Assembly: GCA_965372355.1 (NCBI GenBank)
Contig: CBDVBZ010000004.1
Location: 5,119-69,118 of the forward strand
DNA: 64,000 nucleotides
Direction: 5' to 3'
Source of the DNA: an uncultured bacterium
GTDB lineage: Bacteria > Krumholzibacteriota > Krumholzibacteriia > WVZY01
The translations under genes were made by a program, and so were the position numbers. Each line of letters starts with the position of its first letter. The stretch's first letter is position 1. Positions 4,314-26,296 of the stretch are shown here, piece by piece. The notes under the pieces were generated by a model that was not told where the DNA came from, made no database searches, and was given only the letters and a program-made list of their open reading frames with translations.

Positions 4314-5960
4314 TTACAGATTCCACGTCACATGCATGAACACGGATGTCAACCAGTCATCGATATCCTGTTGGTGCGCGACATTCTTCACCCTGGCCTG
4401 AATGAAATTCACGCCGATCGATGAGTTGCCGCGAAGCTCCCATTCCAGACCCAAACCGTATCCATAGGTTTTCTCCACGACACCGGACGGGAACTTCGGG
4501 TTGGGATCATCGCCTGCCACGAACTGGCGCCAGTCGTTGCCCTCTCCGCGACGCTCGAGCGAGAAGGAGAGTAACGTCGTCAAACTGGGGATCGGGTAGA
4601 CCGCCATGTCGATGTACGCGCGGTCGGAATCCGGGCCCAGTGAGGCCCCCAACGGGTTGTCGAGCGAAAGGTCCACGTCTCCGGTGACCCAGTAGTTTAT
4701 CGAGTCCTCGTGCGTGTATGTGTAGATATCGATATAGCGGTACTGGAAACGAAACGTGGCCGGTAAGGGGTCGACAAGAGCCACGCGCCCGCCGACGTCG
4801 AACGCGAGCTTGTCGGGATACGGATCGTCCTCGAACTGATAGTCGTCGATCAGAAAGCTGCCGTACAAAAGAAGACCGTTCGTCACCTCGTACTTCAGAT
4901 CGAACTCCCACGTGGCGTTATCGTTGTTTTCCAACTGCTCGTTGAACTGGTTGGAATAGAAGCTGCTCAACGGCAGAAGATACATGTGGTCAAAACCACG
5001 CCCTGTATAAATAACCGCTTCGCTCAAGCCCAAGACCGCGGGGCCGAACCGCATCTCGAGGCGGTGGGCGGCAAAACGACGATCCGCGGATGCCGAGAGC
5101 GTTGCGTTCAAAAAGCTGAACAGGAGGTTCTTGAAGCCGATCCGTGCGCCCCACTTGTCCAGGCTGCCGGCTGTGTCGGACAAGATCAAGTTGCCGACCT
5201 CGCTCGGACCCCAGTTTGAATAATCACGCCCCCAGAAAAGCGTCACCCGCCGTTTCCACTGGTAGACGAGATACGCACGCTCGTACAGCGACGTCAGTCC
5301 CTTAAAGCTCTTTTCACGGCGCGAGGGCTTACGTCTGTCGACACGATCGCCCCTCTCCGGTCCGAAAGTCAGCCGGTACCGCACCTCCCAAGTAACCCAG
5401 TCTTTGAAATGCAACCGAAGATCGGGGTTACCGGTCAGAAAAAACGCCCACTTCGGATCGTGCAGTGGCTTGCCGGGGACAAACGACAGGGCGACGTCTC
5501 CCTCCAGGTATAACGGGGCATCCTTGGCCCAAATAGCGGGCGGATCAAACCGTGTCTTGGGATCACTCTGGGCTTCGGGTAACGTGTACTCTTTCTGCAG
5601 CCGATCGAGATTGAACCGATCGCGCGCTGACAACAACGTCTCCGTCACTTCGATGCTTCTTAGTATCTGCTCGACGTAACCGATAACGTCCGGGCGTGTG
5701 AACAACGTCTCCGATGGGAGCCGGACGAGACGGAGGGCTTCGAAACGTTTGAGTGTGGGATAGGTCCAATCCTCGGGCGGAATAAACTCGTTGCCGATGC
5801 TTTCTGATTGGCTGTGACTTGCGGTGACCGTTATGAGGACGAAAATGACGAGAACCCCGAGCGTCCTAGGAAGTCCCCCCGTGCGTTTCGCTTTTCTGAA
5901 ATCTGCGATCCGCCGCCCGATAGTTCTCTTTTGCCTTGTCAAGCTGACCAGCCTTGTCAT
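4314..5960 (-). CDS. predicted secreted/outer-membrane protein (possible beta-barrel; Wzi-like capsule-assembly protein is one possibility)
   Basis: Positively charged N-region then hydrophobic signal segment LGVLVIFVLITVTASHS. Body is rich in alternating aromatic/hydrophilic stretches (YRYIDIYTYTHEDSINYWVTGDVDLSL, GYGLGLEWELRG). Start is uncertain: the longest ORF begins at 5996 and overlaps the upstream TPR gene. Confidence 0.5.
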   Translation of the reverse strand: MTRLVSLTRQKRTIGRRIADFRKAKRTGGLPRTLGVLVIFVLITVTASHSQSESIGNEFIPPEDWTYPTLKRFEALRLVRLPSETLFTRPDVIGYVEQILRSIEVTETLLSARDRFNLDRLQKEYTLPEAQSDPKTRFDPPAIWAKDAPLYLEGDVALSFVPGKPLHDPKWAFFLTGNPDLRLHFKDWVTWEVRYRLTFGPERGDRVDRRKPSRREKSFKGLTSLYERAYLVYQWKRRVTLFWGRDYSNWGPSEVGNLILSDTAGSLDKWGARIGFKNLLFSFLNATLSASADRRFAAHRLEMRFGPAVLGLSEAVIYTGRGFDHMYLLPLSSFYSNQFNEQLENNDNATWEFDLKYEVTNGLLLYGSFLIDDYQFEDDPYPDKLAFDVGGRVALVDPLPATFRFQYRYIDIYTYTHEDSINYWVTGDVDLSLDNPLGASLGPDSDRAYIDMAVYPIPSLTTLLSFSLERRGEGNDWRQFVAGDDPNPKFPSGVVEKTYGYGLGLEWELRGNSSIGVNFIQARVKNVAHQQDIDDWLTSVFMHVTWNL

Positions 5961-6996
5961 AAACAACGCCGAGGTAGTAATACGCCTTGCCATCATCGGG
6001 GCTAATCTCGGTCACTCGCTTTAGGGGAGCAATCGCCTTGTCCGGCTCATCCATTCTATTGTAGCACACACCGATGCGGTACAGAATCGAGGGATTCTCC
6101 GGATCCATTTGCAGCGCGCTGTGCAGACTCTTGACCGCTTTTCCGTACAACCCCTTCTTGTCGTATGCCAGGCCGAGGTACAAATGAGCATTCTTGTGTG
6201 ACTGATCGAGCCGCAGAACTCTTCTGAATTCTTCGATTGCACCCTTGATGTCACCTTGTTCAAAAAGGGCCACACCGAGATTGAAGTGCGCCTCGATGCT
6301 TTTTGGCTCGAGTTCGATCGCAAGGCTGAATTGTTGAATCGCCCGTTCGTGCATTCCCCTTTCACCGTAGAGCGCGCCCAGATTGAAACGCGCCGCCGCG
6401 CTATCGGGGTTGAATTGCACCGCCTTCCGAAACAACTGTATCGCAGTCTCGCCTTCGCCCTTCAAATCGAGCAAATAGCCAAGGTTCGTGTACGCTTTAC
6501 TGTGCGCACCGTCCAGAGCGATCGCTCTGCGATAGCACACTTCCGCTTTCTCGTAACGCTCGCCGCACGCCAGGGTGACTCCGTAACGGTAGTGGCATTC
6601 CGCGTTGTCCGGATCGAGCTCGATTGCGTATTCGTGTTCCTTGATCGCTCGATCCATATCACCGAGTTGTTCGCTGAGACGGCCGAGGAAGTAGTGCGAC
6701 AGTGCACGATGGGTCTGCGTTGCCGCCAAACGCTCGTAGCAGGTCAAGGCGTCCCGCAGGCACTTCCGATCCACCAGCGTTTTGCCGATCACCTCGAGCA
6801 ACGTCGGGGAGACATCAGGGCTCTCGACAATACGCCTGGAGTAAGCCAGCGCCTCTTCCCCCCTGTCCGATTGCCAGAGGAGCCCCGCGAGCTCGCAGGT
6901 GGCCATGTGATCGTTCGGATCGCGATCGACCCGCTGCTGCAGACGACCGAGGCGCCTGAGGTCCGCTCTGGATATTTCCTGACTCTCCAATGTCAT
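5866..6996 (-). CDS. TPR-repeat protein
   Basis: 376 aa of consecutive 34-aa TPR units (e.g. AYYYLGVVYDKAGQLDKAKENYRAA, AHLYLGLAYDKKGLYGKAVKSLHSAL). No other domain recognised. Confidence 0.8.
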   Translation of the reverse strand: MTLESQEISRADLRRLGRLQQRVDRDPNDHMATCELAGLLWQSDRGEEALAYSRRIVESPDVSPTLLEVIGKTLVDRKCLRDALTCYERLAATQTHRALSHYFLGRLSEQLGDMDRAIKEHEYAIELDPDNAECHYRYGVTLACGERYEKAEVCYRRAIALDGAHSKAYTNLGYLLDLKGEGETAIQLFRKAVQFNPDSAAARFNLGALYGERGMHERAIQQFSLAIELEPKSIEAHFNLGVALFEQGDIKGAIEEFRRVLRLDQSHKNAHLYLGLAYDKKGLYGKAVKSLHSALQMDPENPSILYRIGVCYNRMDEPDKAIAPLKRVTEISPDDGKAYYYLGVVYDKAGQLDKAKENYRAADRRFQKSETHGGTS

Positions 6997-7094
6997 AGCT
7001 TCACCTTGTTTAGCGTCCCAAAGCGAAACTATTACAGCATTGAAAAAGGTGTCAAGAATTATTGCGCGGAGCAGTGGTACCTATCTAATTGCGA

Positions 7095-8573
7095 CTAAGC
7101 CTCTTCGTCGCCAACCTGGATCTCGAGCTCGATTTTGATCGGGACGGTCTTGCGCATCTGTGACCGTTTGAGATACACGGGGACCGTCACGGTGACCGGT
7201 TCGTCATCCTGGCTGGCCACAGGCGATGGGTGCCCCGGCGGCGGGCTCGCTGTCCTGGGGGGTGGCGATGTCGCCTCCTTGGGCTCCGGCTCCTCTGTTT
7301 CGGCCGTTTTGGACTGAAACGGGTCGACGATAAACTCTCCCCCTTGCGAATCCGTGGGTAACTCGACCGGCGTGTCATCGAAATCGATCACGCGGCCGAC
7401 GTCCTCGTCCACTTCCCGGGAGCTCTCCAACGACGCAAACTGGAACTCCTTGTCGAGGGAGTCATCCATCTTCTTCTCGGTGCCCGCGTTGGCTTCCCCC
7501 AGAGGCGTCTGGGCCATCGGGGGCGCCGTTTCGATCTTCCCGGGCTTAGATGGCGCTGATGTCACGACACGTGGCGTATCCGGCACCGGCACGTTGTTCT
7601 CTTCCACCTCGCGGAGCGCGCTGTCGACCACATCGGAAACGTCGTCGCTCACCGCGGGCGGCTTCGGACCGGCCGGCTGAGACGCCCAGGGCTGCGATTG
7701 GGTTGTCTGCGCGGCCGTCGGCTGCGATCGGGTTGTCTGCGCGGCCGTCGGCTGCGATTGGGTTGTCTGCGCGGCCGTCGGCTGCGATTGGGTTGTCTGT
7801 GCGGCCGTCGGCTGCGATCGGGTTGTCTGCGCGGCCGTCGGCTGCGGCTCGGTGACGTGCGGCATGGGTCCGTGAGCGGCCACCGGCTGCGGCTCCGGAG
7901 TCTGCGGCGTGGGAGGCGCCTCGGTCTGCGACTCCTGCGGCGAACCTTCCACCCCGGCTCCGACACGCGGCGCCGGCTGGGTGCTCTTCAGGCGTTCAAC
8001 GAGCTGCCGGTACAGCAATCCGCCGATCGCGCGGAATGTCTCGTAGATACCGTGGCCGGTCGTCGCAACCGCCTCATAGCTCGGAACGTTCAACAGATTC
8101 AGCTTGCTGTTCAGCATCGCGACGGGCAGTGCGCCGGGGAGATCCCGCTTGTTGTACTGGATCACCCACGGCATCGTATCGAGCGTCAAGCTGTGCTCGT
8201 TGAGGTTTTCCTCGAGGTTGCGAAGGCTTTCGATGTTCTCCTCCATCTTCGAGGCCTGGGAATCCGCGACAAACACCACGGCGTCGGCTCCCTTCAAAAC
8301 TAGTTTTCTCGTCGCGTTGTAGTAGACCTGTCCCGGCACCGTGTAAAGTAGTATCCGTGTTCGATAACCGTTGATCTCCCCGACATCTAGTGGTAAGAAA
8401 TCGAAGAAGAGGGTCCGATCGGTCCGGGTTTTCATCGACACCATTTTGCCCTTCGTGTCCTCCGGCATTCTTTCGTAGATAAATTCGAGATTCGTCGTTT
8501 TGCCACTCAAAGCCGGCCCGTAATAGACGACCTTGGCGTTGAGCTCGGCTCCTGAGTAATTGAAAACAACCAT
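7095..8573 (-). CDS. mglA: MglA-family Ras-like small GTPase with ~300-aa low-complexity C-terminal extension
   Basis: From [33 protein letters not shown]... the first ~195 aa align closely with Myxococcus MglA ([59 protein letters not shown]). P-loop GPALSGKTT, switch-I Thr, TVPGQ and NKRD are all present. The tail is Pro/Thr/Gln-rich with five QPTAAQTT[RQ]S repeats and an acidic segment. The ORF-track start at 8729 is a 52-aa artefactual extension. Confidence 0.85.
   Translation of the reverse strand: [492 protein letters not shown]
7690..7855. repeat. 30-bp tandem repeat, ~5.4 copies (GGCTGCGAT[TC]GGGTTGTCTGCGCGGCCGTC), in-frame inside mglA-like tail
   Basis: Directly visible periodicity at 7690-7719, 7720-7749, 7750-7779, 7780-7809, 7810-7839, plus a partial unit. 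Encodes the [10 protein letters not shown] decapeptide repeats. Confidence 0.9.
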
Positions 8574-8804
8574 GGAATGTCCCCTCGAGTCGCGCGATGC
8601 GGTTGCGGTTGACAAGTGGCGAGTCGCGCGGCCTGTCACAGGTGGTGTACGATACGAATGACTGCAATCGGTTTCGGAGAAGCGGCCAGAGGCCGTTCCG
8701 CTTCGCCTCTCGCGCAAGTACCGTGCCAAGGGTGGGCCTCATCCCGAGGGTGGGATTTTGCCTAATCGCTTGCCGTCAAGTCAAATACGAGTCTAATACG
8801 GTGG

Positions 8805-17025: not shown

Positions 17026-18246
17026 TTAGTCCATTTGCTTTCTCACGAACGTCGGAACCCTGAAATTGTCTGAGTTGAACGAGCGAATCGAGCCGCTGCC
17101 CATCATGACGGTCTCTTCCGCTTCTTTCGCCTCGGCGACGGGCTCGGCCTCGACCTCGACCGGTTTCTCCTCTGGTTCCGGTGCACGAGGCTGGGGTTTG
17201 AGTTCGACGACGCGCTGATCACTGCTCAGCAGCTCGGTGAAATTGATTTCCTTCCTCTCCGTCTCTTCCTCCTCTTTGATCACCGGGACGCCATCGAATC
17301 CGGTCGCGATCACGGTCACCTTGAGTTCGTCGGCGGACAGTTTCTCATCGATCACCGCGCCGAGAAACACGTGCGCACCGGGGCCTGCTTCCTTGTTGAT
17401 GATCGTCGCCGCTTTGCTGACCTGCTGCAGGCTCAAGGACTTGGATCCGGTGATGTTGACCAGAATCCCGCTCGCGCCGCGGACCGAAATGTTATCGAGC
17501 AGCGGGCTGGCAATCGCCATGTTCGCGGCTTCCTCAGCACCGTTCTTGCCGCTGCCGACACCGGTTCCCATAATGGCATCGCCGCCATCGCTCATGACGC
17601 TACGGACATCGGCAAAATCCAGATTGACCACGCCGGTCTCCGTAATCAGATCCGAGATACCACGAGTCGCGTTGCAGAGCACCTCATCGGCCAGCGAGAA
17701 CGCATCGAGCAACGGTGTGTTCTCATCGGTGATCGCGAGCAGCTTGTCGTTGGGGATGACGAGCAACGTATCCACTTCCCTCTTGAGTTCCTCGATCCCC
17801 TTTTCCGCCTGCGCGATCCGCTGATCCCCTTCGAAAAAGAAGGGTCGCGTGACAATACCCACGGTCAGCGCTCCGGCCTCGCGCGCAATCGAGGCGACAA
17901 TCGGGCAAGCTCCCGTGCCGGTGCCCCCACCCATCCCAGCGGTGAGAAACACCATATCGGCACCCTGAAGGCTTTCCCTGAGGACTTCGCGGCTCTCCTC
18001 GGCAGCCTCTGCCCCGACTCGCGGGTCGCCACCGGATCCCAGTCCTCGGGTGATCTTTGCGCCGATCTGGATTCGCTGTTGAGCCTCCGACCCCCTCAAC
18101 ACCTGCAGGTCCGTATTCAGCGCCGTGAAGTCGACGCCACCAAAACCCGCGTTCACCATTCGGTTCACAGCGTTTCCACCGGCGCCACCAACCCCGACTA
18201 CTTTGAGGACCGTTAGCCGCTTGTCTTCCTCGAGTTGAAAACGCAT
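17026..18246 (-). CDS. ftsZ: cell division protein FtsZ
   Basis: Tubulin signature GGGTGTG ([19 protein letters not shown]). N-terminal [15 protein letters not shown]. Disordered C-terminal linker plus conserved C-terminal peptide. Confidence 0.97.
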
Positions 18247-18267
18247 ACGCCTGCTCCTTTCATCGAG

Positions 18268-19509
18268 CTATACAAAACTTGCAATTGCCTTGCGTAGGTG
18301 GTCAACCGACGTTCTCCACCATCTGGCCGACGATGTCCTTTCCGACCTTCCCGCGCTCCAGGCATCGTCGTAGAGGAGTAAACCAACTCCCGTCGCATAT
18401 TTCGGATGGTTGACGACTTCGGTAAGCCCATCAACCGCTATAGGGGTCCCTATTCTGACCGGTAAATCGAATACCTGTTCGGCGAGTTCCTGGGCTCCGG
18501 CGAGCATCGATGATCCACCAGTGAGAACGACACCGGCCCCCAGTGATTTCTTGTACTCACTCTTCGTGATCTGATCATTGATCAGCGAGAACAGCTCGTT
18601 GACCCTCGGTTCGATGATTCCGGCCAGGAAGTGCTTACCCACCTTCTTATCTTCGCGAAACCCGATACCGGGAACGTCTATCTGTTCGTCGAGCGACGCC
18701 ATACTCGATAGTGCACAACCATGTTCGATCTTTATGGATTCTGCCGCCCGCATGGCGGTTCGCAAGCCATAAGCGATATCGCTCGTCACATTGCTCCCCC
18801 CAATACCGATCACACCGCTGGCCACCACACCGTCTTCCCGGTAGATCATGACATCCGTCGTGCCGCCCCCGATATCGATCAGCATGACGCCGATCTCCCG
18901 TTCATCGTCGGTGACGACCGAGAAGCTGGACGCGAGTGGCTCGAGGACGAGTTCGCCGATATCGATGTGGCAGTTATCGAGTGTCCGGGCAATGTTGTCC
19001 AGCGCTGCCCGGGACGCCGTCACCACATGCGCCCTCGCCTCCAGACGGGTCCCTCGCATACCCGAGGGCTCTCGAATACCGTCCTGATTGTCGATGATGT
19101 ACTGCTGCGGCAACGTGTGAAGAATCTCACGGTCCGCCGGCAGGGAGAAATCGGCCGCCGCTCTGAGTGAGCGTGCCACGTCGTCGCGGTCGATCTCGGG
19201 GTCCGGACCCGGTATTCCCACGACACCACGACTGTTCATGCTGAGTATGTGCTCGCCTGCGACACCGACGTTGTACTGCCGCACGGATGTTCCCGCCATC
19301 TTCTCCGCCTCGGCGACCGCGCAGGCAACCGATCCGCTCGCCTTCTCGATATCGACGACGACCCCCTGCTTGAGACCTTCCGCCGGTGTCGTGCCGATAC
19401 CAATGATGCGGACGGCGCCATCCTGCCGCATCCCGAGCATCGCGGACACTTTGGTCGTACCCATATCAAGGCTACCCACGAGTTGTCCGTCTATTCTCAC
19501 GTCATGCAC
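18268..19509 (-). CDS. ftsA: cell division protein FtsA
   Basis: Actin-like ATPase: DMGTTKVSAMLG..., DIGGGTTDVMIY..., C-terminal amphipathic tail. Lies immediately upstream of ftsZ. Confidence 0.95.
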   Translation of the reverse strand: MHDVRIDGQLVGSLDMGTTKVSAMLGMRQDGAVRIIGIGTTPAEGLKQGVVVDIEKASGSVACAVAEAEKMAGTSVRQYNVGVAGEHILSMNSRGVVGIPGPDPEIDRDDVARSLRAAADFSLPADREILHTLPQQYIIDNQDGIREPSGMRGTRLEARAHVVTASRAALDNIARTLDNCHIDIGELVLEPLASSFSVVTDDEREIGVMLIDIGGGTTDVMIYREDGVVASGVIGIGGSNVTSDIAYGLRTAMRAAESIKIEHGCALSSMASLDEQIDVPGIGFREDKKVGKHFLAGIIEPRVNELFSLINDQITKSEYKKSLGAGVVLTGGSSMLAGAQELAEQVFDLPVRIGTPIAVDGLTEVVNHPKYATGVGLLLYDDAWSAGRSERTSSARWWRTSVDHLRKAIASFV

Positions 19510-19521
19510 CTGCCTCTCGGA

Positions 19522-20292
19522 CTAGATCCCGTTCCTAAGTACGATCTGATCGTCGAAACGGAGATCGATCAGCTTAGCCGAGTCATCATTTCTGGCGATG
19601 GTGTTTTCCAGCAGGAAATACCTTCTTAATCGATTCTCGAATTCTGAACTTCCAAGCAGCAATACCACACCCTCTCTCAAAGAGACAATGCTTATTCCGC
19701 TCGTCCCGATCCTCAATTCCGAGATGCTGTCGGCGAATCCCCCACCGTACTTCTTGCAGATCAGCAGTGTCTCGAGAGCCCATGTCAAACGCTCGTCGTC
19801 GCAGAACTGCCCCTCGCTTACCGCCGCACCGCCCAGCCCCGTGACGATCGGGAGATCCAGGAGATCGGTCAGGTCGTCTGAGCCCATCACCATGCCCTCC
19901 TGATCGACTTCCAGGAACTTGCCCGCATAGATCAGGGCCACCGGCTCGCGCTCCGAAAACGTGCAAATCACCCGATTCGGCAAGACACGTTTGAACCGGG
20001 CGCTCCGGATCCTTGGATGTTGGGCAAATCTTGCCGCAAAATTCTCCAATGGTACAAGAAGAATGTTCTCTCCCCGCATGCCCTGGAGAGCCCTGTCTAT
20101 CTCTCCGCTATCGAGCCGGTTCAACCCGTTGTAATCCACCTGGGTGATGGCGAGCTTCTCCGTGGTGGTCAGATAACTGTGCGCGTAGAAACAGCCCACG
20201 ATCACGGTCCCAATGACGACAGATGTCGCGAGACGTGCGATCACGGCCACGAGGGCCTGCCTTTTCTGACGGCGTGTCTTATCGATTGCCAA
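19522..20292 (-). CDS. ftsQ: cell division protein FtsQ/DivIB (POTRA domain)
   Basis: Single N-terminal TM (LVAVIARLATSVVIGTVIVGCF), then POTRA-like ITQVDYNGLNRLDSGEIDRAL. Positioned between murB and ftsA. Confidence 0.85.
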   Translation of the reverse strand: MAIDKTRRQKRQALVAVIARLATSVVIGTVIVGCFYAHSYLTTTEKLAITQVDYNGLNRLDSGEIDRALQGMRGENILLVPLENFAARFAQHPRIRSARFKRVLPNRVICTFSEREPVALIYAGKFLEVDQEGMVMGSDDLTDLLDLPIVTGLGGAAVSEGQFCDDERLTWALETLLICKKYGGGFADSISELRIGTSGISIVSLREGVVLLLGSSEFENRLRRYFLLENTIARNDDSAKLIDLRFDDQIVLRNGI

Positions 20293-21208
20293 TGATGATC
20301 ACCTCCGGTTTGAGACGAACTCCGAACTTGGCCTCGACCCTGTCGCCGACGAGCCTGATCAGATTCTCCACGTCGTTTGCCCTCGTACCCTCGCCGACGT
20401 TGACCATGAAGTTCGCGTGCTTTTTCGAAACCATCGCTCCACCCCGGCGCTCGCCCTTCAAACCGCACGCTTCGATCATCTGGCCGGCGAAACCGCCGCG
20501 GGGGTTCCTGAACGTGCTCCCGAAGGTGCGCTCCGAGAGCGGTTGTGTGTGTTTTCGGCCGAGCGACTGCTGCAAACAGGCCTCGTCGATCTCGCCCGGC
20601 GGGCAGTGGAAGATGGCCGAAAGCACGATCGAATTCGGAGGCAATGTGCTCCCGCGATAGCGGAACGCCATTTCCTCGGGCTTGAGTACAATGAGCTTCC
20701 CGTTCCCGTCTATCAGCCTCGCGCTCTTCAAGACGTTGGAGAGATCCGATCCGAAGGCGCCCGCATTCATCCGGACGGCGCCGCCCACGGATCCGGGTAT
20801 ACCGACGGCAAACTCGAATCCGGGGCGGGCGTTCTTTGTCAGCACCCTACCCAACTTCGTGAACGACAGACCCGCTTCCGCGTGCGCGGTTCGTTTGAGC
20901 AGACGAAATCCCGCCAGATTGCCGGCGACCTGGATGATCAGACCCTCATATCCTCCGTCGCGTACGATCAGATTCGAACCGCGCCCGACGCCGATATACG
21001 GCAACCCCCATTTGAGAGCCGTCCGAACAACGGAGATCACCTCGGGGCCCCGGTGGGGCACCGCGAAGAACCACGCCTTGCCACCGGCGCCAAACGTCGT
21101 GTGCTTGGACATGGGTTCATCGACCCGGACACCCCGGGGGCAGGCCTTTCGCAACTCAGCCTCTATTCTTTGACTATCCACTGCTCCCATGGCAATCGCC
21201 TGCATCAT
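20279..21208 (-). CDS. murB: UDP-N-acetylenolpyruvoylglucosamine reductase MurB
   Basis: FAD-binding region HTTFGAGGKAWFFAVPHRGPEVISVV...YIGVGRGSNLIV. Start set at MMQAIAMG (21208), an ATGA overlap with the murC stop. The 105-aa upstream extension in the ORF track has no homology. Confidence 0.9.
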   Translation of the reverse strand: MMQAIAMGAVDSQRIEAELRKACPRGVRVDEPMSKHTTFGAGGKAWFFAVPHRGPEVISVVRTALKWGLPYIGVGRGSNLIVRDGGYEGLIIQVAGNLAGFRLLKRTAHAEAGLSFTKLGRVLTKNARPGFEFAVGIPGSVGGAVRMNAGAFGSDLSNVLKSARLIDGNGKLIVLKPEEMAFRYRGSTLPPNSIVLSAIFHCPPGEIDEACLQQSLGRKHTQPLSERTFGSTFRNPRGGFAGQMIEACGLKGERRGGAMVSKKHANFMVNVGEGTRANDVENLIRLVGDRVEAKFGVRLKPEVIIIGNR

Positions 21209-22584
21209 CGCTCTTTCTCGAGCCGGCGGAGAAGAAGCTCTCCCGCCCGATAAATGTCTCCAGCTCCGAGCGTCAGTACGAGATCCCCCGCCTTCAGGTG
21301 GGGTAGCGCCTGTTCTACCAGCGCCTCGATCGAGTCCGATCGGAATACCTCGATCCCCGACTTCCTTACCTTTTCTGCGATGAGATCGGACGTCACTCCG
21401 GGTATCGGGTCCTCCCCTGCTGCGTAGATATCGGTCATAAAGACAACGTCGGCACCGGCAAAACAGCTCCCGAACTGTTTGACCAGGGCTTGTGTCCGTG
21501 TGAAACGATGCGGCTGAAAACAAACGATCAGGCGCTTGTCGTAGTTCTCGCCAGCCGCGCGTATCGTTGCCGCGATCTCCGTAGGATGATGCCCGTAGTC
21601 ATCGACTACGGTGATGCCTGAAGCCTCACCCTTAAGCTCGAACCGCCGCCCCACACCCTCGAACGTCTCGATGCCTTTCTTTATCGACTCAAAGGGCAGA
21701 TCGAGTTCCAACCCGACGGTCGTGGCGGCAAGGGCATTTCGCACCATGTGCTCGCCCGGCAGATCGAGGCGAATGTCACCGAGGAGTCTGTTGCGATGGC
21801 GGACCTCGAATACCCAGCCCCGAGACCCTTTGCGAAGGATCGTGCCCTGCAAATCGGCCTCTCCACCGAGGGAATACGACACCTTTCGTCTGCGGATACG
21901 CGGCATGATGGAAACCACGTTTGGATCGTCGGCGCACAGCACCACCGACCCGTAGAACGGCACCCGCGATGCGTATTCCACAAAGCCATCCTTGATGGCC
22001 TCCAAATCAGGGTAGAAATCGAGGTGCTCGAGATCGATATTGGTGATGACGGCAATACTCGAGGGGAGCTGAACGAATCCCCCGTCGCTTTCATCCGCCT
22101 CCGCCACGATATAACGGCTGTCGCCGAGCCGTGCATTGGTGCCGATGGCTTTCAACTTGCCTCCGACGACAACGGTCGGGTCCAGACCGCCGTAGTTGAG
22201 CACCGATGACACCAGCGAGGTCGTCGTCGTTTTGCCGTGTGAGCCCGCCACGGTGATGGCGAACTTGAGACGCATGAGTTCCGCGAGCATCTCCCCTCTT
22301 GGAATCGCCGGCACGGCGTTCATGTTTGCCTCGACGACTTCTGGGTTCGTGGCCGGGACCGCACTCGAGTACACAACGACATCGGCGCCTTGAACGTTCT
22401 TTGCCTCGTGTTTGCCGAATACAACGGCACCCAGTTTTTCGAGATTCCGGGTCGTATCGGACAACTTGAGGTCGGACCCCGAGACCTCGAAGCCGAGATT
22501 CAGGAGAACCTCGGCGATGCCGCTCATGCCGATGCCGCCGATGCCAACGAAATGAATCCTTCTCGTTCTGCCCAGAAAAACCAT
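21205..22584 (-). CDS. murC: UDP-N-acetylmuramate--L-alanine ligase MurC
   Basis: HFVGIGGIGMSGIAEVL, Mur ligase ATP-binding ITVAGSHGKTTTTS, central and C-terminal Mur ligase domains. Start at MVFLGRTRRIHF. Confidence 0.95.
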   Translation of the reverse strand: MVFLGRTRRIHFVGIGGIGMSGIAEVLLNLGFEVSGSDLKLSDTTRNLEKLGAVVFGKHEAKNVQGADVVVYSSAVPATNPEVVEANMNAVPAIPRGEMLAELMRLKFAITVAGSHGKTTTTSLVSSVLNYGGLDPTVVVGGKLKAIGTNARLGDSRYIVAEADESDGGFVQLPSSIAVITNIDLEHLDFYPDLEAIKDGFVEYASRVPFYGSVVLCADDPNVVSIMPRIRRRKVSYSLGGEADLQGTILRKGSRGWVFEVRHRNRLLGDIRLDLPGEHMVRNALAATTVGLELDLPFESIKKGIETFEGVGRRFELKGEASGITVVDDYGHHPTEIAATIRAAGENYDKRLIVCFQPHRFTRTQALVKQFGSCFAGADVVFMTDIYAAGEDPIPGVTSDLIAEKVRKSGIEVFRSDSIEALVEQALPHLKAGDLVLTLGAGDIYRAGELLLRRLEKER

Positions 22585-22600
22585 CACTCGGGTTCTCCCA

Positions 22601-23755
22601 TCATTGTGCTGTGCTCCCCGCGGCAAGGCTGGGGTGTTCCCGCCGTTGCGCAAGCTCGGGCTTCCCGAGCCCCGCCACTTCTCGGATTCTGGTGGCCGCT
22701 TCGATATCCGCGTCGCCGGGCGCCCAGGCTCGTAGCTTGCGCGCCATCTCCTCGCGCCGGCTCCCGTCGTCGAGGAGAGCGAAGATCATCGTCTCGAGTG
22801 TCTTTGCACCGAGCCTCCGATCCTCCACGACGACAGCCGCATCCACGTCCGTGAGCTCGGCCACGTTGCACGCCTGGTGGTCATCCGCCGCGTACGGGTA
22901 CGGGACGAAAATCGAGGGCACGCCGAAGGCCGCCAGCTCGAAAACGGCCGACGCGCCCGCCCGCGACACGGCAAGATCCGCGACTTCGTAGGCGTTGTCT
23001 ATCTGTTCGAGGAATGGCAGGACACGGACGTGGGTGGCGAGCGGTTCGAGATCGGCGCGAACGGCCTCGTAGTCGTTCCTGCCGGTCAGAAATACGAACT
23101 GGACCTTGCGTTTTGAGAGGATGCTCTTCACTGCCACGCGCGCTGCCTCGTTGATCGCATGGGCTCCACGGCTGCCTCCAAATATCAGCACGGTCGGAAG
23201 CGTCGCATCGAGATCGAAAAAGGCAAACGCCTCATCCCGGTCTCTGCGCGGCTTCACTCTGAGGGGGTTGCCGATGACATCACAGCGAACACCCTTTGGG
23301 AGGAAACCACGGGAGTCCTTGTACGAGAGAAGCACGAGATGCGCGAATCGCGACAACATGCGATTGGCCAGACCCGGGATACTGTTCTGCTCCTGTAGGA
23401 CGCGTTTCTTTCCGCACACAACGGACGCGGCCACAACGGCGACGCTGGCGAACCCACCGGTCCCGACAACCACATCGGGGTTGAATGAGACGATCTCTTT
23501 TACCGCGCGCAACATGCTCGACAAAAACACAAACGGACTCGCCAGTTTGGAAGCCAACCCCGAGCCCCGCACCCCCCGGCCGGCGAGCAAAACGTGGGGG
23601 AGACCGAGATCTTGGAAGATATTGCTCTCGACACCCGACTTCGCGCCGACGAAAAGCACATCGACACCATCCCCGAAACGCTTGAGAGCGTTGTAGATGG
23701 CGATACCCGGATACACATGTCCGCCGGTTCCGCCACCGGCGATCATCACACGCAT
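22601..23755 (-). CDS. murG: UDP-GlcNAc:undecaprenyl-PP-MurNAc-pentapeptide GlcNAc transferase MurG
   Basis: MRVMIAGGGTGGHVYPGIAI signature of the MurG N-terminus. GT28 C-terminal domain. Confidence 0.95.
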   Translation of the reverse strand: MRVMIAGGGTGGHVYPGIAIYNALKRFGDGVDVLFVGAKSGVESNIFQDLGLPHVLLAGRGVRGSGLASKLASPFVFLSSMLRAVKEIVSFNPDVVVGTGGFASVAVVAASVVCGKKRVLQEQNSIPGLANRMLSRFAHLVLLSYKDSRGFLPKGVRCDVIGNPLRVKPRRDRDEAFAFFDLDATLPTVLIFGGSRGAHAINEAARVAVKSILSKRKVQFVFLTGRNDYEAVRADLEPLATHVRVLPFLEQIDNAYEVADLAVSRAGASAVFELAAFGVPSIFVPYPYAADDHQACNVAELTDVDAAVVVEDRRLGAKTLETMIFALLDDGSRREEMARKLRAWAPGDADIEAATRIREVAGLGKPELAQRREHPSLAAGSTAQ

Positions 23756-23781
23756 GTCTTCTCCCTCGGCTTCATCATGTG

Positions 23782-24924
23782 CTAGGCCATCCGTCGTCTG
23801 TCCCGGGTCGCACGTTGCGCTCGGGGTCTCTTGGATACATTGAGCAGTATGCCGATCGAAAATGCGTTCACTACGAGGGCCGATCCGCCATAACTCAAGA
23901 ATGGAAGCGGCAGACCTGTCACCGGAAAGAGACCGGTTGCAACAAACATATTGAGGATCGCATACACAAAGACCGTGCTTCCGATGCCGACGGCGAGCAT
24001 CTCTCCAAAACGGTCATTGCTCTGGCGGGATATCCTCAGCGTCCGCAACGCCAGCAGCAAGAACAGGAGGCTCACGAACATCGTCCCCATCAATCCCGCC
24101 TCTTCACCCAGGATGGAAAAGATAAAATCCGTATGCGAATCGGGGAGCCAGTTGAGTTTCTGCCGGCTCGCGCCGAAGCCCAACCCGAACGGTCCGCCCG
24201 TCCCCAGCCCGATCAGCGACTGGTGAAGCTGCCAGTTCAATTCTCCGATTCCCTCGCTGGGGTTGAAATACGCGTGGAGCCGATCACCGGCATACCCCAC
24301 CGTACGGATTCCGATCGCCGCGAGCCCGATAACGGTGGACGCCAGCAAGGCCAGATGGGAAAGCCGCGCGCCACCGAGGAACAACATCAGAAACGCGATC
24401 ACCGCCGTCGCCGATGCGGACCCGAAGCTCGGCTGTGCAGCCATCAACCCCAACACCAAAACGACCAGAACGCCGGCCGGCAAAAATCCGGACTTGAACT
24501 GACTCAGGTCTTTTCCCTTGCGGGCTATCCAGAAGGCGAGAAACAAAACCAGCGCGAATCTGGCAATTTCCGATGGCTGAAACGTCATCTGCAAAAAATC
24601 CAGTTGGTACGATCGAACCGGTCCGCGTATCGCGACACCAAAGATGAAGAGCCCGATCAGCATCGCAATACCTGCGCCCAGCGCCACCGGCGACAAACGT
24701 CGGAAAACGCGGTAATCGATGTGAAGCGCCAGAACGAGAAACAAACCGGCGATCGCCATTCTTACGAGATGTCGCTTGAGCAGGAAGTACGTATCCCCGA
24801 ACTTGCCCGCCGAGAAATACGAACTGGAGGAAGCAACGAGGCTGCAGCTAATAGCCATCAGGATGACGACGATCAGCAAGATCCTTCTGTCACACTCGAG
24901 TTTTGGAGCTTTGATCTTTCTCAT
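23782..24924 (-). CDS. ftsW: SEDS-family peptidoglycan glycosyltransferase FtsW
   Basis: Polytopic. Blocks ...MTFQPSEIARFALVLFLA... and C-terminal ...PFLSYGGSALVVNAFSIGILLNVS typical of FtsW/RodA. Lies in the dcw position between murD and murG. Start at MRKIKAPKL. Confidence 0.9.
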   Translation of the reverse strand: MRKIKAPKLECDRRILLIVVILMAISCSLVASSSSYFSAGKFGDTYFLLKRHLVRMAIAGLFLVLALHIDYRVFRRLSPVALGAGIAMLIGLFIFGVAIRGPVRSYQLDFLQMTFQPSEIARFALVLFLAFWIARKGKDLSQFKSGFLPAGVLVVLVLGLMAAQPSFGSASATAVIAFLMLFLGGARLSHLALLASTVIGLAAIGIRTVGYAGDRLHAYFNPSEGIGELNWQLHQSLIGLGTGGPFGLGFGASRQKLNWLPDSHTDFIFSILGEEAGLMGTMFVSLLFLLLALRTLRISRQSNDRFGEMLAVGIGSTVFVYAILNMFVATGLFPVTGLPLPFLSYGGSALVVNAFSIGILLNVSKRPRAQRATRDRRRMA

Positions 24925-24934
24925 AACAACTCTC

Positions 24935-26296
24935 TCACAACAGACTCGCCGCAGCCTTGAACGCCTCGCCTCTTTCGGTGTAACCACTGAACATATCGAA
25001 GCTGGAGCAGGCGGGGGCGAGAAGCACTGTGTCACCCGATTTGGCGGTTTCGCTTGCCACCCTGACCGCTTCCTCCATAGTCGCCGCACGGAAGATGTCA
25101 CAATGACCGCGAAGGGCAGCCTCGATCTTGTCACCGGCCTCGCCGATCAGGACGACCCGCCGGACCTTACCGAGATGTTTCACGAGTGGGGCGTAGTCAC
25201 CGCCCTTGTCGACTCCGCCCAGGATCAGGACGAGGTGTCCGTCGATGCTACGTACGCTTTTGATCGCCGCGTCGACGTTTGTCGCCTTGGAATCATCGAT
25301 ATAGGCAACGCCGCCCGCGACCCTCGCAAGCTCCATCCGATGCGGCAGAGCCCGGTACGCTCTCAGCGCCCTCGCAACAACACGCGCATCGATGTCGAAT
25401 GGCATAGCGGCCGCCACAGCGGCCATGGCGTTCTCGAGATTGTGGATCCCGACGGGTGAGAAATCCGATATCGGCATCACCACCTCGACGTCCCCCCGCC
25501 AACGTCTGACGATAGTGCCCTCGTGCACATAGACGCCGTTGTCGCCTGCGGGCGTCCTGCCAAACGGGATCTTCTTGCCCGTGTAGCCATCCGCGATTCG
25601 TTTGCAGACAACGTCATCCTCGTTGTAGACGAACCACGTGTCTTCGTCCGCCGCGTTTAGTATCCTCGATTTGGATTCCGCGTACTTGTCGAACGAGTTG
25701 TCATATCTGTCCAGATGATCGGCGGTGACATTGAGCAGCACGGCGACCCGCGTCTTGAAATCTTCGATCGTGTCCAGCTGAAAACTGCTGATCTCGAGTA
25801 CCGCGACATCAATTTCTCTTTTTTGCGTAATGATCGATGAAAGGGGCGTCCCTATGTTGCCACCAACGGCATACCGTCGCTCCGCGGCTTGAAAGATATC
25901 GCCCAGGAGACTCACAACGGTGGATTTGCCATTCGTGCCCGTCACACCGATGATCTCGGCCGCGCAGAAGTGATAGGCCAGCTCCAGTTCACCAATGACC
26001 TCAATGCCATCGGCTCTTGCCTTTCGCACGACGGGGTGTTCGAGAGAGACACCTGGGCTTACAACAACACAATCGCTATCGATCACGCTCCCCAACACAC
26101 TCTCTCCCGTGGCGATTTCTACCGAACGCTCCAGCCCCTCGAACTCCGGCGAGGCGAGGACCGATTCCAGAACCGATGCATCGTCATCAAAGATGGCGAC
26201 GTTAAACCCCCTGTTGGCGAGGAGGCGCGTGACGGCCACGCCACTCTTCCCCAACCCAATGACAAAGAACTTCTTTTTGCTGGAAATATCCACCAA
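24935..26296 (-). CDS. murD: UDP-N-acetylmuramoylalanine--D-glutamate ligase MurD
   Basis: N-terminal FFVIGLGKSGVAVTRLL. ATP-binding IIGVTGTNGKSTVVSLL. C-terminal Mur ligase domain. Confidence 0.95.
   Translation of the reverse strand: MVDISSKKKFFVIGLGKSGVAVTRLLANRGFNVAIFDDDASVLESVLASPEFEGLERSVEIATGESVLGSVIDSDCVVVSPGVSLEHPVVRKARADGIEVIGELELAYHFCAAEIIGVTGTNGKSTVVSLLGDIFQAAERRYAVGGNIGTPLSSIITQKREIDVAVLEISSFQLDTIEDFKTRVAVLLNVTADHLDRYDNSFDKYAESKSRILNAADEDTWFVYNEDDVVCKRIADGYTGKKIPFGRTPAGDNGVYVHEGTIVRRWRGDVEVVMPISDFSPVGIHNLENAMAAVAAAMPFDIDARVVARALRAYRALPHRMELARVAGGVAYIDDSKATNVDAAIKSVRSIDGHLVLILGGVDKGGDYAPLVKHLGKVRRVVLIGEAGDKIEAALRGHCDIFRAATMEEAVRVASETAKSGDTVLLAPACSSFDMFSGYTERGEAFKAAASLL

Follow-up and report, generated by a model that had tools for sequence, protein, structure and literature searches.

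A long-tailed MglA subfamily with a conserved C-terminal module and no adjacent mglB gene

Introduction

MglA is the model Ras-like polarity switch of bacteria, and current models describe a protein of 195 amino acids that is localised and cycled by the separate proteins MglB, RomR/RomX and MglC. How, then, might a small GTPase of this kind be localised and controlled when it has no neighbouring GAP, and what could disordered tethers and short motifs contribute to bacterial polarity? These questions are opened by a locus from an uncultured member of the Krumholzibacteriota. The window (the whole stretch of DNA that was analysed, 64,000 nucleotides) carries an mglA gene whose product continues for ~300 amino acids beyond its G domain. 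No description of a long-tailed MglA subfamily was found in the literature searched. The reference survey of the family kept single-domain sequences of 150-240 amino acids and dropped those of more than 240 by design (Wuichet and Sogaard-Andersen 2014, PMC4316618), so long MglAs were never classified; at 492 amino acids, the window protein falls outside that limit.

A complete MglA switch at the N-terminus

The long-tailed mglA gene occupies positions 7095..8573 of the minus strand (492 codons, a stop codon at 7095-7097 and an ATG at 8573), and its 492-amino-acid product can be aligned with homologues from the first methionine to the final residue. Because the N-terminus MVVFNYSG is common to all homologues aligned, the ATG at 8573 was taken as the correct start; an upstream TTG at 8729 was ruled out by this shared beginning. 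Direct reading of the sequence gave a Shine-Dalgarno-like GAGGGGA 6 nt 5' of the ATG (8580..8586, minus strand), and a promoter-like TTGACT-18-CAAAAT lies 5' of the gene (8755..8784, minus strand), picked out purely by its match to the consensus.

Amino acids 1-195 (7989..8573, minus strand) were assigned as an MglA G domain from PDB phmmer and Foldseek searches, invariant residues and dN/dS. In the phmmer search, amino acids 3-191 matched the Myxococcus xanthus MglA structures 6hjh/5ymx/6h17 with an E value of 3e-71 and Thermus thermophilus MglA (3t12) with 6e-68, bearing out the name that a first, sequence-only reading of this DNA had given to the domain. Foldseek aligned the full-length model with MglA structures including 6izw/6h17 over ~189 columns (TM 0.82-0.86 relative to the target, E value 7e-22), and nothing outside the G domain of the model was aligned.

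The P-loop, GPALSGKT at amino acids 19-26, fits the pattern GxxxxGK[ST] and has alanine at position 21. The intrinsic Arg53 (in TDRTLFFDF) and the catalytic Gln82 (in TVPGQ) are both present and are invariant in 72 homologues as well as in all 81 MglAs aligned across classes, while NKRD at amino acids 141-144 is kept in 119 of 120 homologues. Thr78, which sits with Gln82 in LYTVPGQ, is invariant in the alignments; its replacement of the conserved Asp of the G3 motif DxxG is a trait of MglA (PMC3000849) that the window protein shares. Compared with the canonical Group 1 MglAs of M. xanthus and T. thermophilus (PMC4316618), the window G domain is 50-58% identical, has the same fold and keeps the P-loop, the Arg53 finger, Thr78, Gln82, NKRD and the beta-2 residues Phe56, Phe57 and Phe59. 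The two differ in length and at position 21 (~195 amino acids and Gly21 in the canonical protein, 492 and Ala21 in the window protein), in the alpha-5 lysines, which the window protein keeps only in part, and in the lack of an adjacent mglB at the window locus.

With every catalytic residue in place, the N-terminal 195 amino acids form a complete MglA nucleotide switch. The domain has a dN/dS of ~0.05, against 0.23-0.5 for the tail motifs and terminal module and 0.45-1.1 for the linkers. Ala21 was considered as a GTP-locking mark of the whole long-tailed family and ruled out because half of the family has glycine there (60 Gly versus 58 Ala across 118 close homologues).

A long tail is the rule in this subfamily

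The sequence-only reading had regarded a tail on MglA as unusual; it is instead standard for a whole subfamily. When homologues were compared, the 120 best were found to be mostly long (270-594 amino acids, median 434), and at least 117 of them carry the same ~30-amino-acid module at their extreme C-terminus, three clearly being without it. The long-tailed architecture is the norm for an MglA subfamily in the Latescibacterota, Krumholzibacteriota and Eisenbacteria, with comparable long tails also in the Acidobacteriota. Long MglAs without a membrane-type end formed two clades separate from canonical MglA. A frameshift or assembly collapse in the repeat region had also been feared; for the tail this doubt is settled by motifs and a module that continue in frame past the repeat in more than 100 homologues. 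The tail is real and not an artefact.

Variable linkers and a 30-bp repeat

Linker 1 (amino acids 196-306; 7656..7988, minus strand) is rich in Pro, Thr, Gln and Ala, is predicted to be disordered (AlphaFold pLDDT 41-56; 93% disorder-promoting residues) and shows low conservation, its alignment occupancy falling to about zero beyond close relatives and its dN/dS being 0.46-0.56. Within it lies a 30-bp tandem repeat, which Tandem Repeats Finder (TRF) placed at 7690..7846 on the minus strand with 5.2 copies, 96% matches and a score of 293; the earlier figures of 7690-7855 and 5.4 copies agree with this in essence. At amino acids 244-293 its product contains five exact QPTAAQTT[RQ]S units, where five near-perfect decapeptides had been read. 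It had further been marked as probably variable in copy number, and such variation was observed: contig L001 (ENA ERZ25074835), which comes from a different assembly and encodes an MglA 97% identical to that of the window, has 4.2 copies, exactly one 30-bp unit fewer, in frame and with identical flanks where compared. The decapeptide is missing from more distant homologues, and 12 of 120 family tails hold tandem peptide repeats unrelated to it, which shows a spacer tolerant of repeats. The decapeptide array is a recent expansion, specific to its lineage, within a variable spacer that evolves fast. The number of repeats alters the length of the tether, not its function.

Linker 2 (amino acids 421-459; 7197..7313, minus strand) consists of 28% proline and is likewise variable, with a dN/dS of 0.5-1.1. 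In the full-length AlphaFold model, pLDDT stays below 56 throughout amino acids 200-459, and the ~300 amino acids beyond the G domain are accordingly modelled as an intrinsically disordered, fast-evolving tether.

Conserved motifs and a terminal module

Four elements recur along the tail in the same order: first an acidic helix, next an F.F...GRVIDLD island, then the EFITDP motif and finally the C-terminal module. Their dN/dS values of 0.23-0.5 indicate purifying selection. The first is an acidic amphipathic helix island at amino acids 307-324 (7602..7655, minus strand), in which D317, A319, L320, R321 and E322 are invariant or nearly so, L320 and R321 strictly; it is helical in an AlphaFold model of the tail alone (pLDDT ~60), is recognisable at the Krumholzibacteriota locus L009 and has a looser counterpart at L011 and L013. 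The second, at amino acids 373-400 (7374..7457, minus strand), is also acidic, with F377, F379, G393, R394 and D397 conserved and a dN/dS of 0.25-0.5. The third is a short linear motif at amino acids 411-420 (7314..7343, minus strand) with the family consensus EFITDP.R and conserved F414, D417 and P418; its dN/dS is ~0.23, and it is tandemly tripled in homologues P0085 and P0087. The acidic character that had been noticed in the tail amounts to a net charge of -18 over amino acids 307-420.

The C-terminal module (amino acids 460-492; 7098..7196, minus strand) consists of two segments of alternating hydrophobic and polar residues, with a short helical turn between them and an acidic stretch at the end, and its net charge is zero. 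Its presence at the end of nearly all of the best homologues agrees with the earlier impression of a conserved C-terminal segment, and a confident module after a low-pLDDT tail agrees with the disordered tether and terminal motif that had been proposed. AlphaFold gave the module a pLDDT of 77-85 within the whole protein and of 73-88 when the tail was modelled alone; because this confidence persists without the G domain, it is not evidence of docking. DSSP assigned no strands to the module in either model. A similar pattern is found in long MglAs of the Acidobacteriota.

No match was found when 32 C-terminal modules were searched against Pfam at E values up to 10, a module profile gave no PDB match better than E 2.2, and Pfam and NCBIfam matches to the full protein were confined to the G domain, with none past amino acid 195. 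A profile of the tail returned 61 matches from 1.84 billion representative proteins, and those inspected were long MglAs or their fragments apart from one spurious repeat protein. With the module alone as profile, 14 matches were obtained, all short fragments of long MglA tails of the Acidobacteriota/Krumholzibacteriota type, from a word-indexed search that scored just 207 candidates and was not exhaustive. Two other identities for the module were considered. A PilZ-like, c-di-GMP-binding reading (RxxxR plus (D/N)xSxxG) was rejected: RSQMR in the window protein fits the first motif, although homologues have G, H, K, S or other residues in place of its second Arg, and the second motif and any Pfam match are absent. 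An AbrB/MazE-like reading was dropped for want of motif conservation or a profile match.

Uncoupling from mglB

Coupled MglA/MglB pairs have mglB, a Roadblock/LC7 gene, within about four genes of mglA, and at the window locus there is no such gene. An MglB profile built from 78 sequences matched none of the ORFs of the 64-kb window or of L001, L002, L003 or L005, and no MglB-like ORF lies within 10 kb of the long mglA in L002, L003 or L005. Across 80 species genomes, long MglAs that do not end in a membrane-type segment had mglB within 6 kb in one case of 33, against 44 of 47 for other MglAs (Fisher p 9e-18, a value that treats related genomes as independent). This beta-type class was defined by exclusion: its members are long and do not end in an amphipathic helix or a transmembrane segment. 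The MglA class of the window is uncoupled from an adjacent mglB gene.

A conserved TPR gene beside mglA

Beginning 98 nt past the mglA stop is a gene for a TPR protein of 376 amino acids (5866..6996, minus strand), with eight repeats (Pfam TPR_1, E 3e-54) and no evident signal peptide. This gene, overlooked in the sequence-only reading, is the most concrete partner candidate. Orthologues 52-64% identical to it lie directly 3' of long mglA at L002, L003, L005, L007, L008, L010, L012, L014, L044 and L081, and one gene further downstream at L011 and L013, so that the gene is kept 3' of long mglA in four phylum-level lineages despite rearranged surroundings. A reciprocal check from one TPR orthologue found a 580-amino-acid long MglA upstream. 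The TPR homologue search was swamped by generic TPR proteins, with four clear orthologues among the matches listed. The DNA here is GC-rich, and shadow ORFs confounded the clustering of neighbouring genes, from which only the TPR cluster was taken. A longer gene block, with UbiA and ValRS downstream, is conserved within the Latescibacterota, and the TPR adjacency may for that reason partly reflect shared ancestry.

On this conserved adjacency, the neighbouring TPR protein is likely to be a partner of the MglA tail. Long MglAs of the Acidobacteriota have the module and no adjacent TPR gene; the module probably binds something more general. A type IV pilus context for long mglA was also considered and rejected: PilO and PilQ are encoded ~9 kb from long mglA in L002, but a dcw cell-division cluster occupies the corresponding position in the window, and no consistent link emerges.

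Discussion

The best reading of these results, and one that we place just on the probable side, is that the window encodes an MglB-uncoupled MglA of a distinct long-tailed subfamily, and that a flexible tail bearing short binding motifs tethers it to a partner. The tail motifs and terminal module would hold the switch at a fixed partner or site, and localisation and effector coupling would be built into the GTPase itself, as opposed to being supplied by an adjacently encoded MglB/RomR module. The most likely binder of the clade-specific motifs would be the cytoplasmic TPR protein, in parallel with Bdellovibrio Bd2492 and M. xanthus SgmX: MglA binds TPR proteins in Bdellovibrio, which is without MglB (PMC3983030), and M. 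xanthus MglA binds the TPR protein SgmX (PMC7519303).

The tail might, on the other hand, be mainly a cis-acting regulator that replaces MglB/RomR, the acidic helix at amino acids 307-324 or other motifs folding onto the G domain. In MglB and RomR, D/E-rich helices at the C-terminus bind an allosteric pocket of MglA and promote nucleotide exchange (PMC6785124), and the window protein has a comparable D/E-rich amphipathic helix, short and flexibly tethered, conserved and with invariant L320 and R321, although theirs act in trans and this one would act in cis. The near absence of adjacent mglB from this class and the Ala21 of the window protein also favour cis-regulation; in a published survey of nine species with MglA and without MglB, position 21 was A or S in five (PMC3983030). 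Gly21 is nevertheless retained by half of the long-tailed family, and K181 and K185, the basic residues of alpha-5 to which the MglB helix binds, are poorly kept (R181/G185 in the window, a family consensus of Q at 181, and K/R at each position in six of 11 clade I members). In the full-length model the helix and other islands have pLDDT values of 44-56, and AlphaFold predicts no docking of the tail onto the G domain. The genomic context, with 32 of 33 such loci lacking an adjacent mglB, lends only indirect support to the earlier idea of a tail that stands in for MglB or RomR. We consider cis-regulation unlikely as the main role of the tail; it is compatible with the tether model and would make the GTPase self-regulating.

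It is quite improbable, in our assessment, that the module is a membrane-binding or self-associating amphipathic beta-hairpin and the tail a membrane or oligomer anchor comparable to the hypervariable region and lipid anchor of eukaryotic Ras/Rho/Rab. Other long MglAs do have such ends: those of the Ignavibacteria, Zixibacteria and others finish in amphipathic helices (KPGFLKRLFGNK, KKKRGFFKRLFGVK), which we take to resemble the membrane-targeting sequence of MinD, and those of the Planctomycetota in transmembrane helices. The strict hydrophobic/polar alternation of two module segments and an AlphaFold confidence independent of the G domain would also suit an anchor. Against this, the module is neutral overall with an acidic end, is without the cluster of basic residues that peripheral membrane binders typically carry and contains no DSSP strands. 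Moreover, the anchored sister MglAs keep mglB whereas the window class is without an adjacent copy, so neither class can simply stand in for the other.

That the tail is an artefact or junk, arising from a frameshift, collapsed repeat or read-through or drifting as a functionless low-complexity extension, is extremely improbable: low-complexity tails are prone to assembly error, the linkers evolve near neutrality and the related assembly L089 has the tail ORF split into two gene calls, yet four motifs stand in one frame in more than 100 homologues of several phyla and end at a conserved C-terminus, the independent assembly L001 matches except for one in-frame repeat unit, and the motifs are under purifying selection.

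The tethered, MglB-uncoupled switch that we favour has counterparts among known systems. In FtsZ and in Ras/Rho/Rab proteins, a GTPase domain is followed by a disordered linker that varies in length and sequence and then by a short conserved terminus for docking to partners or the membrane. The likeness is one of design only, with no homology, and the window linker adds three internal conserved motifs. We know of no tail on the MglA of Bdellovibrio bacteriovorus. That protein likewise lacks a cognate MglB, as the window lacks an adjacent mglB, and it has Ser at position 21 in place of the Ala of the window protein and the Gly of half the long-tailed family (PMC3983030). Its cytoplasmic TPR partner Bd2492 (~350-380 amino acids) was demonstrated there and is here suggested by conserved adjacency. 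In both organisms a TPR gene is followed by a gene for an outer-membrane protein, tamAB in Bdellovibrio and a Wzi-like gene in the window; the Bdellovibrio TPR gene does not adjoin mglA, whereas that of the window does.

SofG of M. xanthus carries extensions beyond its G domain. It too is a Group 1 MglA-family GTPase with an intrinsic Arg and without MglB service, and it positions type IV pilus ATPases (Bulyha 2013, cited in PMC4316618). The window G domain is probably far closer to MglA itself.

In several phyla that have been little studied, long-tailed MglAs are common, and they fall into classes set by the end of the tail. A broader, speculative extension, which we think unlikely to hold as a whole, is that MglAs repeatedly gained a hypervariable linker and terminal anchor of a eukaryote-like kind, with interchangeable ends, and that the beta-type class became self-contained and MglB-free, its terminal module giving localisation, its TPR-binding motifs recruiting the effector and its acidic helix controlling the nucleotide state. 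If so, the acidic helix would mimic the C-terminal helices of MglB and RomR within one protein. For experimental work, the analysis supplies defined peptides and a single candidate partner. The end pieces of long MglAs are of at least three types: a module of the beta type, an amphipathic helix like that of MinD, and a tail anchor that spans the membrane.

A complete MglA switch with a conserved tail

The long mglA gene occupies 7095-8573 (-) and encodes a protein of 492 aa. Although the ORF list begins it at an upstream TTG (7095-8729), we place the start at 8573 because all homologues in the alignment share the N-terminus MVVFNYSG and because the sequence reads GAGGGGA 6 nt 5' of this ATG. 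The MglA G domain recognised in the sequence-only reading was borne out: aa 3-191 matched MglA of M. xanthus (E 3e-71) and T. thermophilus (E 6e-68), and the AlphaFold model aligned with MglA structures at TM 0.82-0.86 relative to the target, across ~189 columns only. The MglA-defining residues, invariant in the family, are retained, namely the P-loop (aa 19-26), Arg53, Thr78, Gln82 and NKRD (aa 141-144). The gene encodes a full MglA switch.

The tail was compared across the best 120 homologues of a large MglA set from a protein search (270-594 aa, median 434; several labelled Latescibacterota). At least 117 of these 120 end in the same terminal module, [VI]T[VI]PV.[LI].RSQ.RKT.P.K[LI].LE[IV].V.DD, which in the window protein is the C-terminal segment (aa 460-492) that the sequence-only reading had picked out. 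The tails align at four conserved elements, which always come in the same order and are set apart by Pro-rich spacers that could not be aligned: an acidic helix (..V..V.D.ALREV), an island (F.F...D..VGRV.DLD), an EFITDP.R motif and the terminal module. An acidic segment had likewise been noted, and aa 307-420 carry a net charge of -18. All four elements lie 3' of the repeat in the same frame, which excludes that the G domain is followed by a stop or a frameshift, a possibility that had been raised as grounds for regarding the tail as an artefact.

No Pfam, NCBIfam or PDB family matched anywhere in the tail. When 1.84 billion representative proteins were scanned with a profile of the tail alone, 61 matched; all those inspected were long MglAs or their fragments, except one spurious repeat protein. 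Among the 207 candidates scored with a profile of the C-terminal module, the matches were further tail fragments, and neither search found a stand-alone tail protein.

AlphaFold, supplied with a 72-sequence alignment, gave the full-length protein pLDDT <56 over aa 200-459 and 77-85 over aa 461-490. When the tail was folded alone as a control, the module retained pLDDT 73-88 (a helix at aa 309-320 reached about 60), indicating that packing against the G domain is not the source of its confidence; in these models it resembles an element that is self-contained or that folds conditionally. Its sole DSSP call is a short helical turn (RSQM), flanked by two extended segments of alternating hydrophobic and polar residues. 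Pairwise dN/dS values between the window gene and two relatives were noisy but ordered, with the G domain at about 0.05, the motifs and module at 0.23-0.5 and the linkers at 0.45-1.1. The tail is a disordered tether bearing conserved motifs.

Two local irregularities were seen among relatives. Against L087, the contig encoding the 77% identical homologue P0002, linker codons 325-372 (7458-7601) gave dN 0.19 and dS only 0.03, a ratio of about 6 over 45 codons; dS was also low (0.06) over codons 373-400, and 0.19-0.5 in the remaining gene. Chance could explain this excess, as could diversifying selection or a recombination tract. In two assemblies of one population that are 99.7-99.9% identical (L089:3257-5040 and L088:3997-5739), a ~41-nt offset and a 1-nt gap in the tail split the L089 gene into 295-aa and 110-aa calls; the split may come from misassembly or from a genuine break in the gene.

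The repeat array

The five QPTAAQTT[RQ]S units (aa 244-293) are encoded, as the unaided sequence had suggested, by a 30-bp tandem repeat, placed by Tandem Repeats Finder at 7690-7846 (5.2 copies, 96% matches, score 293). The suspected copy-number variability is real: L001, a contig from an independent ENA assembly that encodes a 97% identical protein, has 4.2 copies, differing from the window by an exact 30-bp gap in the repeat and by a small number of substitutions in the unit next to it, with identical compared flanks. The decapeptide array is confined to the closest relatives, alignment occupancy being near zero in other homologues. Other tandem peptide repeats, differing in period, sequence and position, occur in 12 of the 120 tails, so the spacer tolerates, and often gains, repeats. 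For the window's array, a tether length polymorphism is the best reading. In two of the 12 repeat-bearing tails (P0085 and P0087) it is the EFITDPMQRSE motif that is tripled, as expected if it were a binding site of changeable valency; motif and flank stand there in three tandem copies (period 19, tail positions about 352-420).

Distribution of long MglAs

The MglA ORF was read at the 80 MglA loci closest to the query in a one-genome-per-species collection. Canonical MglAs measured 192-209 aa. Long MglAs ended in an amphipathic helix, which we take to resemble that of MinD (Ignavibacteria, Zixibacteria, Brocadiia, Chitinivibrionales, Deferrisomatales), in a transmembrane helix (Planctomycetota), or in a window-like module of alternating hydrophobic and polar residues (Latescibacterota, Krumholzibacteriota, Eisenbacteria, Thermoanaerobaculia, Holophagae, Vicinamibacteria, Polarisedimenticolia).

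Using an MglB profile seeded with the Cystobacter mglB adjoining mglA and then iterated, mglB was found within 6 kb of mglA at 34/36 short loci, 10/11 membrane-anchored long loci (often as two copies flanking mglA) and 1/33 remaining long loci (Fisher's exact test over the 80 loci, uncorrected for relatedness, p = 9e-18). The profile detected no MglB-like ORF in the window's 64 kb, and no mglB adjoins its long mglA. In a neighbour-joining tree of G domains, 28 of the 33 orphan long MglAs fell into two clades apart from canonical MglA: clade I (the window, Latescibacterota, Krumholzibacteriota, Eisenbacteria and one locus labelled Gemmatimonadetes) and clade II (Acidobacteriota). Clade II proteins are probably paralogues, since Acidobacteriota also own canonical mglBA pairs.

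Seven loci from Zixibacteria, Ignavibacteria, Brocadiia and Chitinivibrionales (L016, L021, L029, L046, L047, L054, L076) have MinD-like ends such as KPGFLKRLFGNK or KKKRGFFKRLFGVK; MglB-like genes flank mglA in five, and lie on one side only in L046 and L076. The Deferrisomatales locus L042 has this type of end and no mglB nearby. Three Planctomycetota loci (L050, L053, L071), all with adjacent mglB, have a C-terminal hydrophobic helix of ~20-25 residues and look like tail-anchored membrane proteins. Acidobacteriota long orphan MglAs (about 294-412 aa; Thermoanaerobaculia L019, L020, L022, L028, L031, L034, L038; Holophagae and relatives L018, L048, L056, L068, L080) have conserved ends, ...LVKEVTVPLNLSLDELRQHRRLRLKITLDVNLLP or ...VVEVPVVLDRSLFSGEGPVEIKLKLYIK, and no TPR neighbour; this long MglA is a second one in a phylum that also has the canonical pairs, with a 194-aa MglA.

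The enzyme itself is already known; its tail architecture is, to our knowledge, undescribed. A limited literature collection yielded no description of long-tailed MglAs, and a reference survey of prokaryotic small GTPases dropped sequences >240 aa (PMC4316618). The architecture carries a clear genomic signature.

A conserved TPR neighbour

A 376-aa gene encoding eight TPR repeats, with no signal peptide evident at the N-terminus, starts 98 nt 3' of the long mglA. At all clade I loci that were informative, an orthologue (52-64% identity) lies downstream of long mglA, an order kept even where other neighbours differ. Reciprocally, the neighbourhood of one TPR orthologue (52% identical) was inspected, and the gene upstream of it encodes a long MglA of 580 aa that carries all four tail elements. 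No TPR gene adjoined long mglA at the clade II loci examined.

MglA-TPR partnerships are experimentally established: Bdellovibrio MglA, with Ser21 and without MglB, binds the 353-aa TPR protein Bd2492 (PMC3983030), and SgmX, also a TPR protein, works with MglA in M. xanthus (PMC7519303). We infer that the tail tethers the MglA switch to a partner or site, the clade I-specific motifs (aa 307-324, 373-400, 411-420) being the best candidates for TPR protein binding. The terminal module probably recognises something more general, as it is common to clade II, which is without the TPR neighbour. That it binds membrane or oligomerises is suggested by the membrane anchoring of the sister long MglA classes, although the module is neutral in charge and acidic at its end, which speaks against this. 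By analogy with the C-terminal helices of MglB and RomR (PMC6785124), the acidic helix could possibly regulate the G domain in cis, but its region is of low confidence in the full-length AlphaFold model, the alpha-5 lysines are poorly kept, and only half of the family has Ala at residue 21.

The 98-nt gap holds no terminator-like site but does contain, at 7028-7055 (-), a sequence that strongly matches a promoter (TTGACA, 16 nt, AATAGT, with TG); from sequence, transcription of the TPR gene may come both from a promoter of its own and from read-through. At the Krumholzibacteriota locus L011, long mglA and the TPR gene are separated by a stand-alone receiver domain gene of response-regulator type (7268-7642 (+), 124 aa), which hints at phosphorelay input to this module of genes; L013 has the same ~1-kb mglA-TPR spacing. 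On L087 (2867-3918 (+)) gene calling breaks the TPR gene into two short pieces (119 + 105 aa), reflecting either assembly frameshifts or a degraded copy.

Surrounding genes

Opposite-strand ORFs over mglA and the TPR gene (7698-8303 (+), 7550-7855 (+), 6256-7098 (+)) were rejected as shadow ORFs of the kind usual in GC-rich coding DNA; in one of them the repeat is read as a Cys/Arg/Leu-rich (CLRGRRLR-type) repeat. From its first ATG, the ORF of a Wzi-like outer-membrane protein (4314-5996 (-)) overlaps the TPR gene 3' end by 131 nt. Its true start is probably further downstream, since the protein is called as 463 aa in the 97% relative (L001, 7662-9053) and not as the 560 aa listed for the window. 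A division and cell-wall (dcw) cluster lies at 17026-26296 (-), comprising FtsZ (17026-18246), FtsA, FtsQ, MurB, MurC, MurG, FtsW and MurD; at the corresponding distance the Latescibacterota genome CP070631.1 (L002) has PilO and a PilQ-type secretin.
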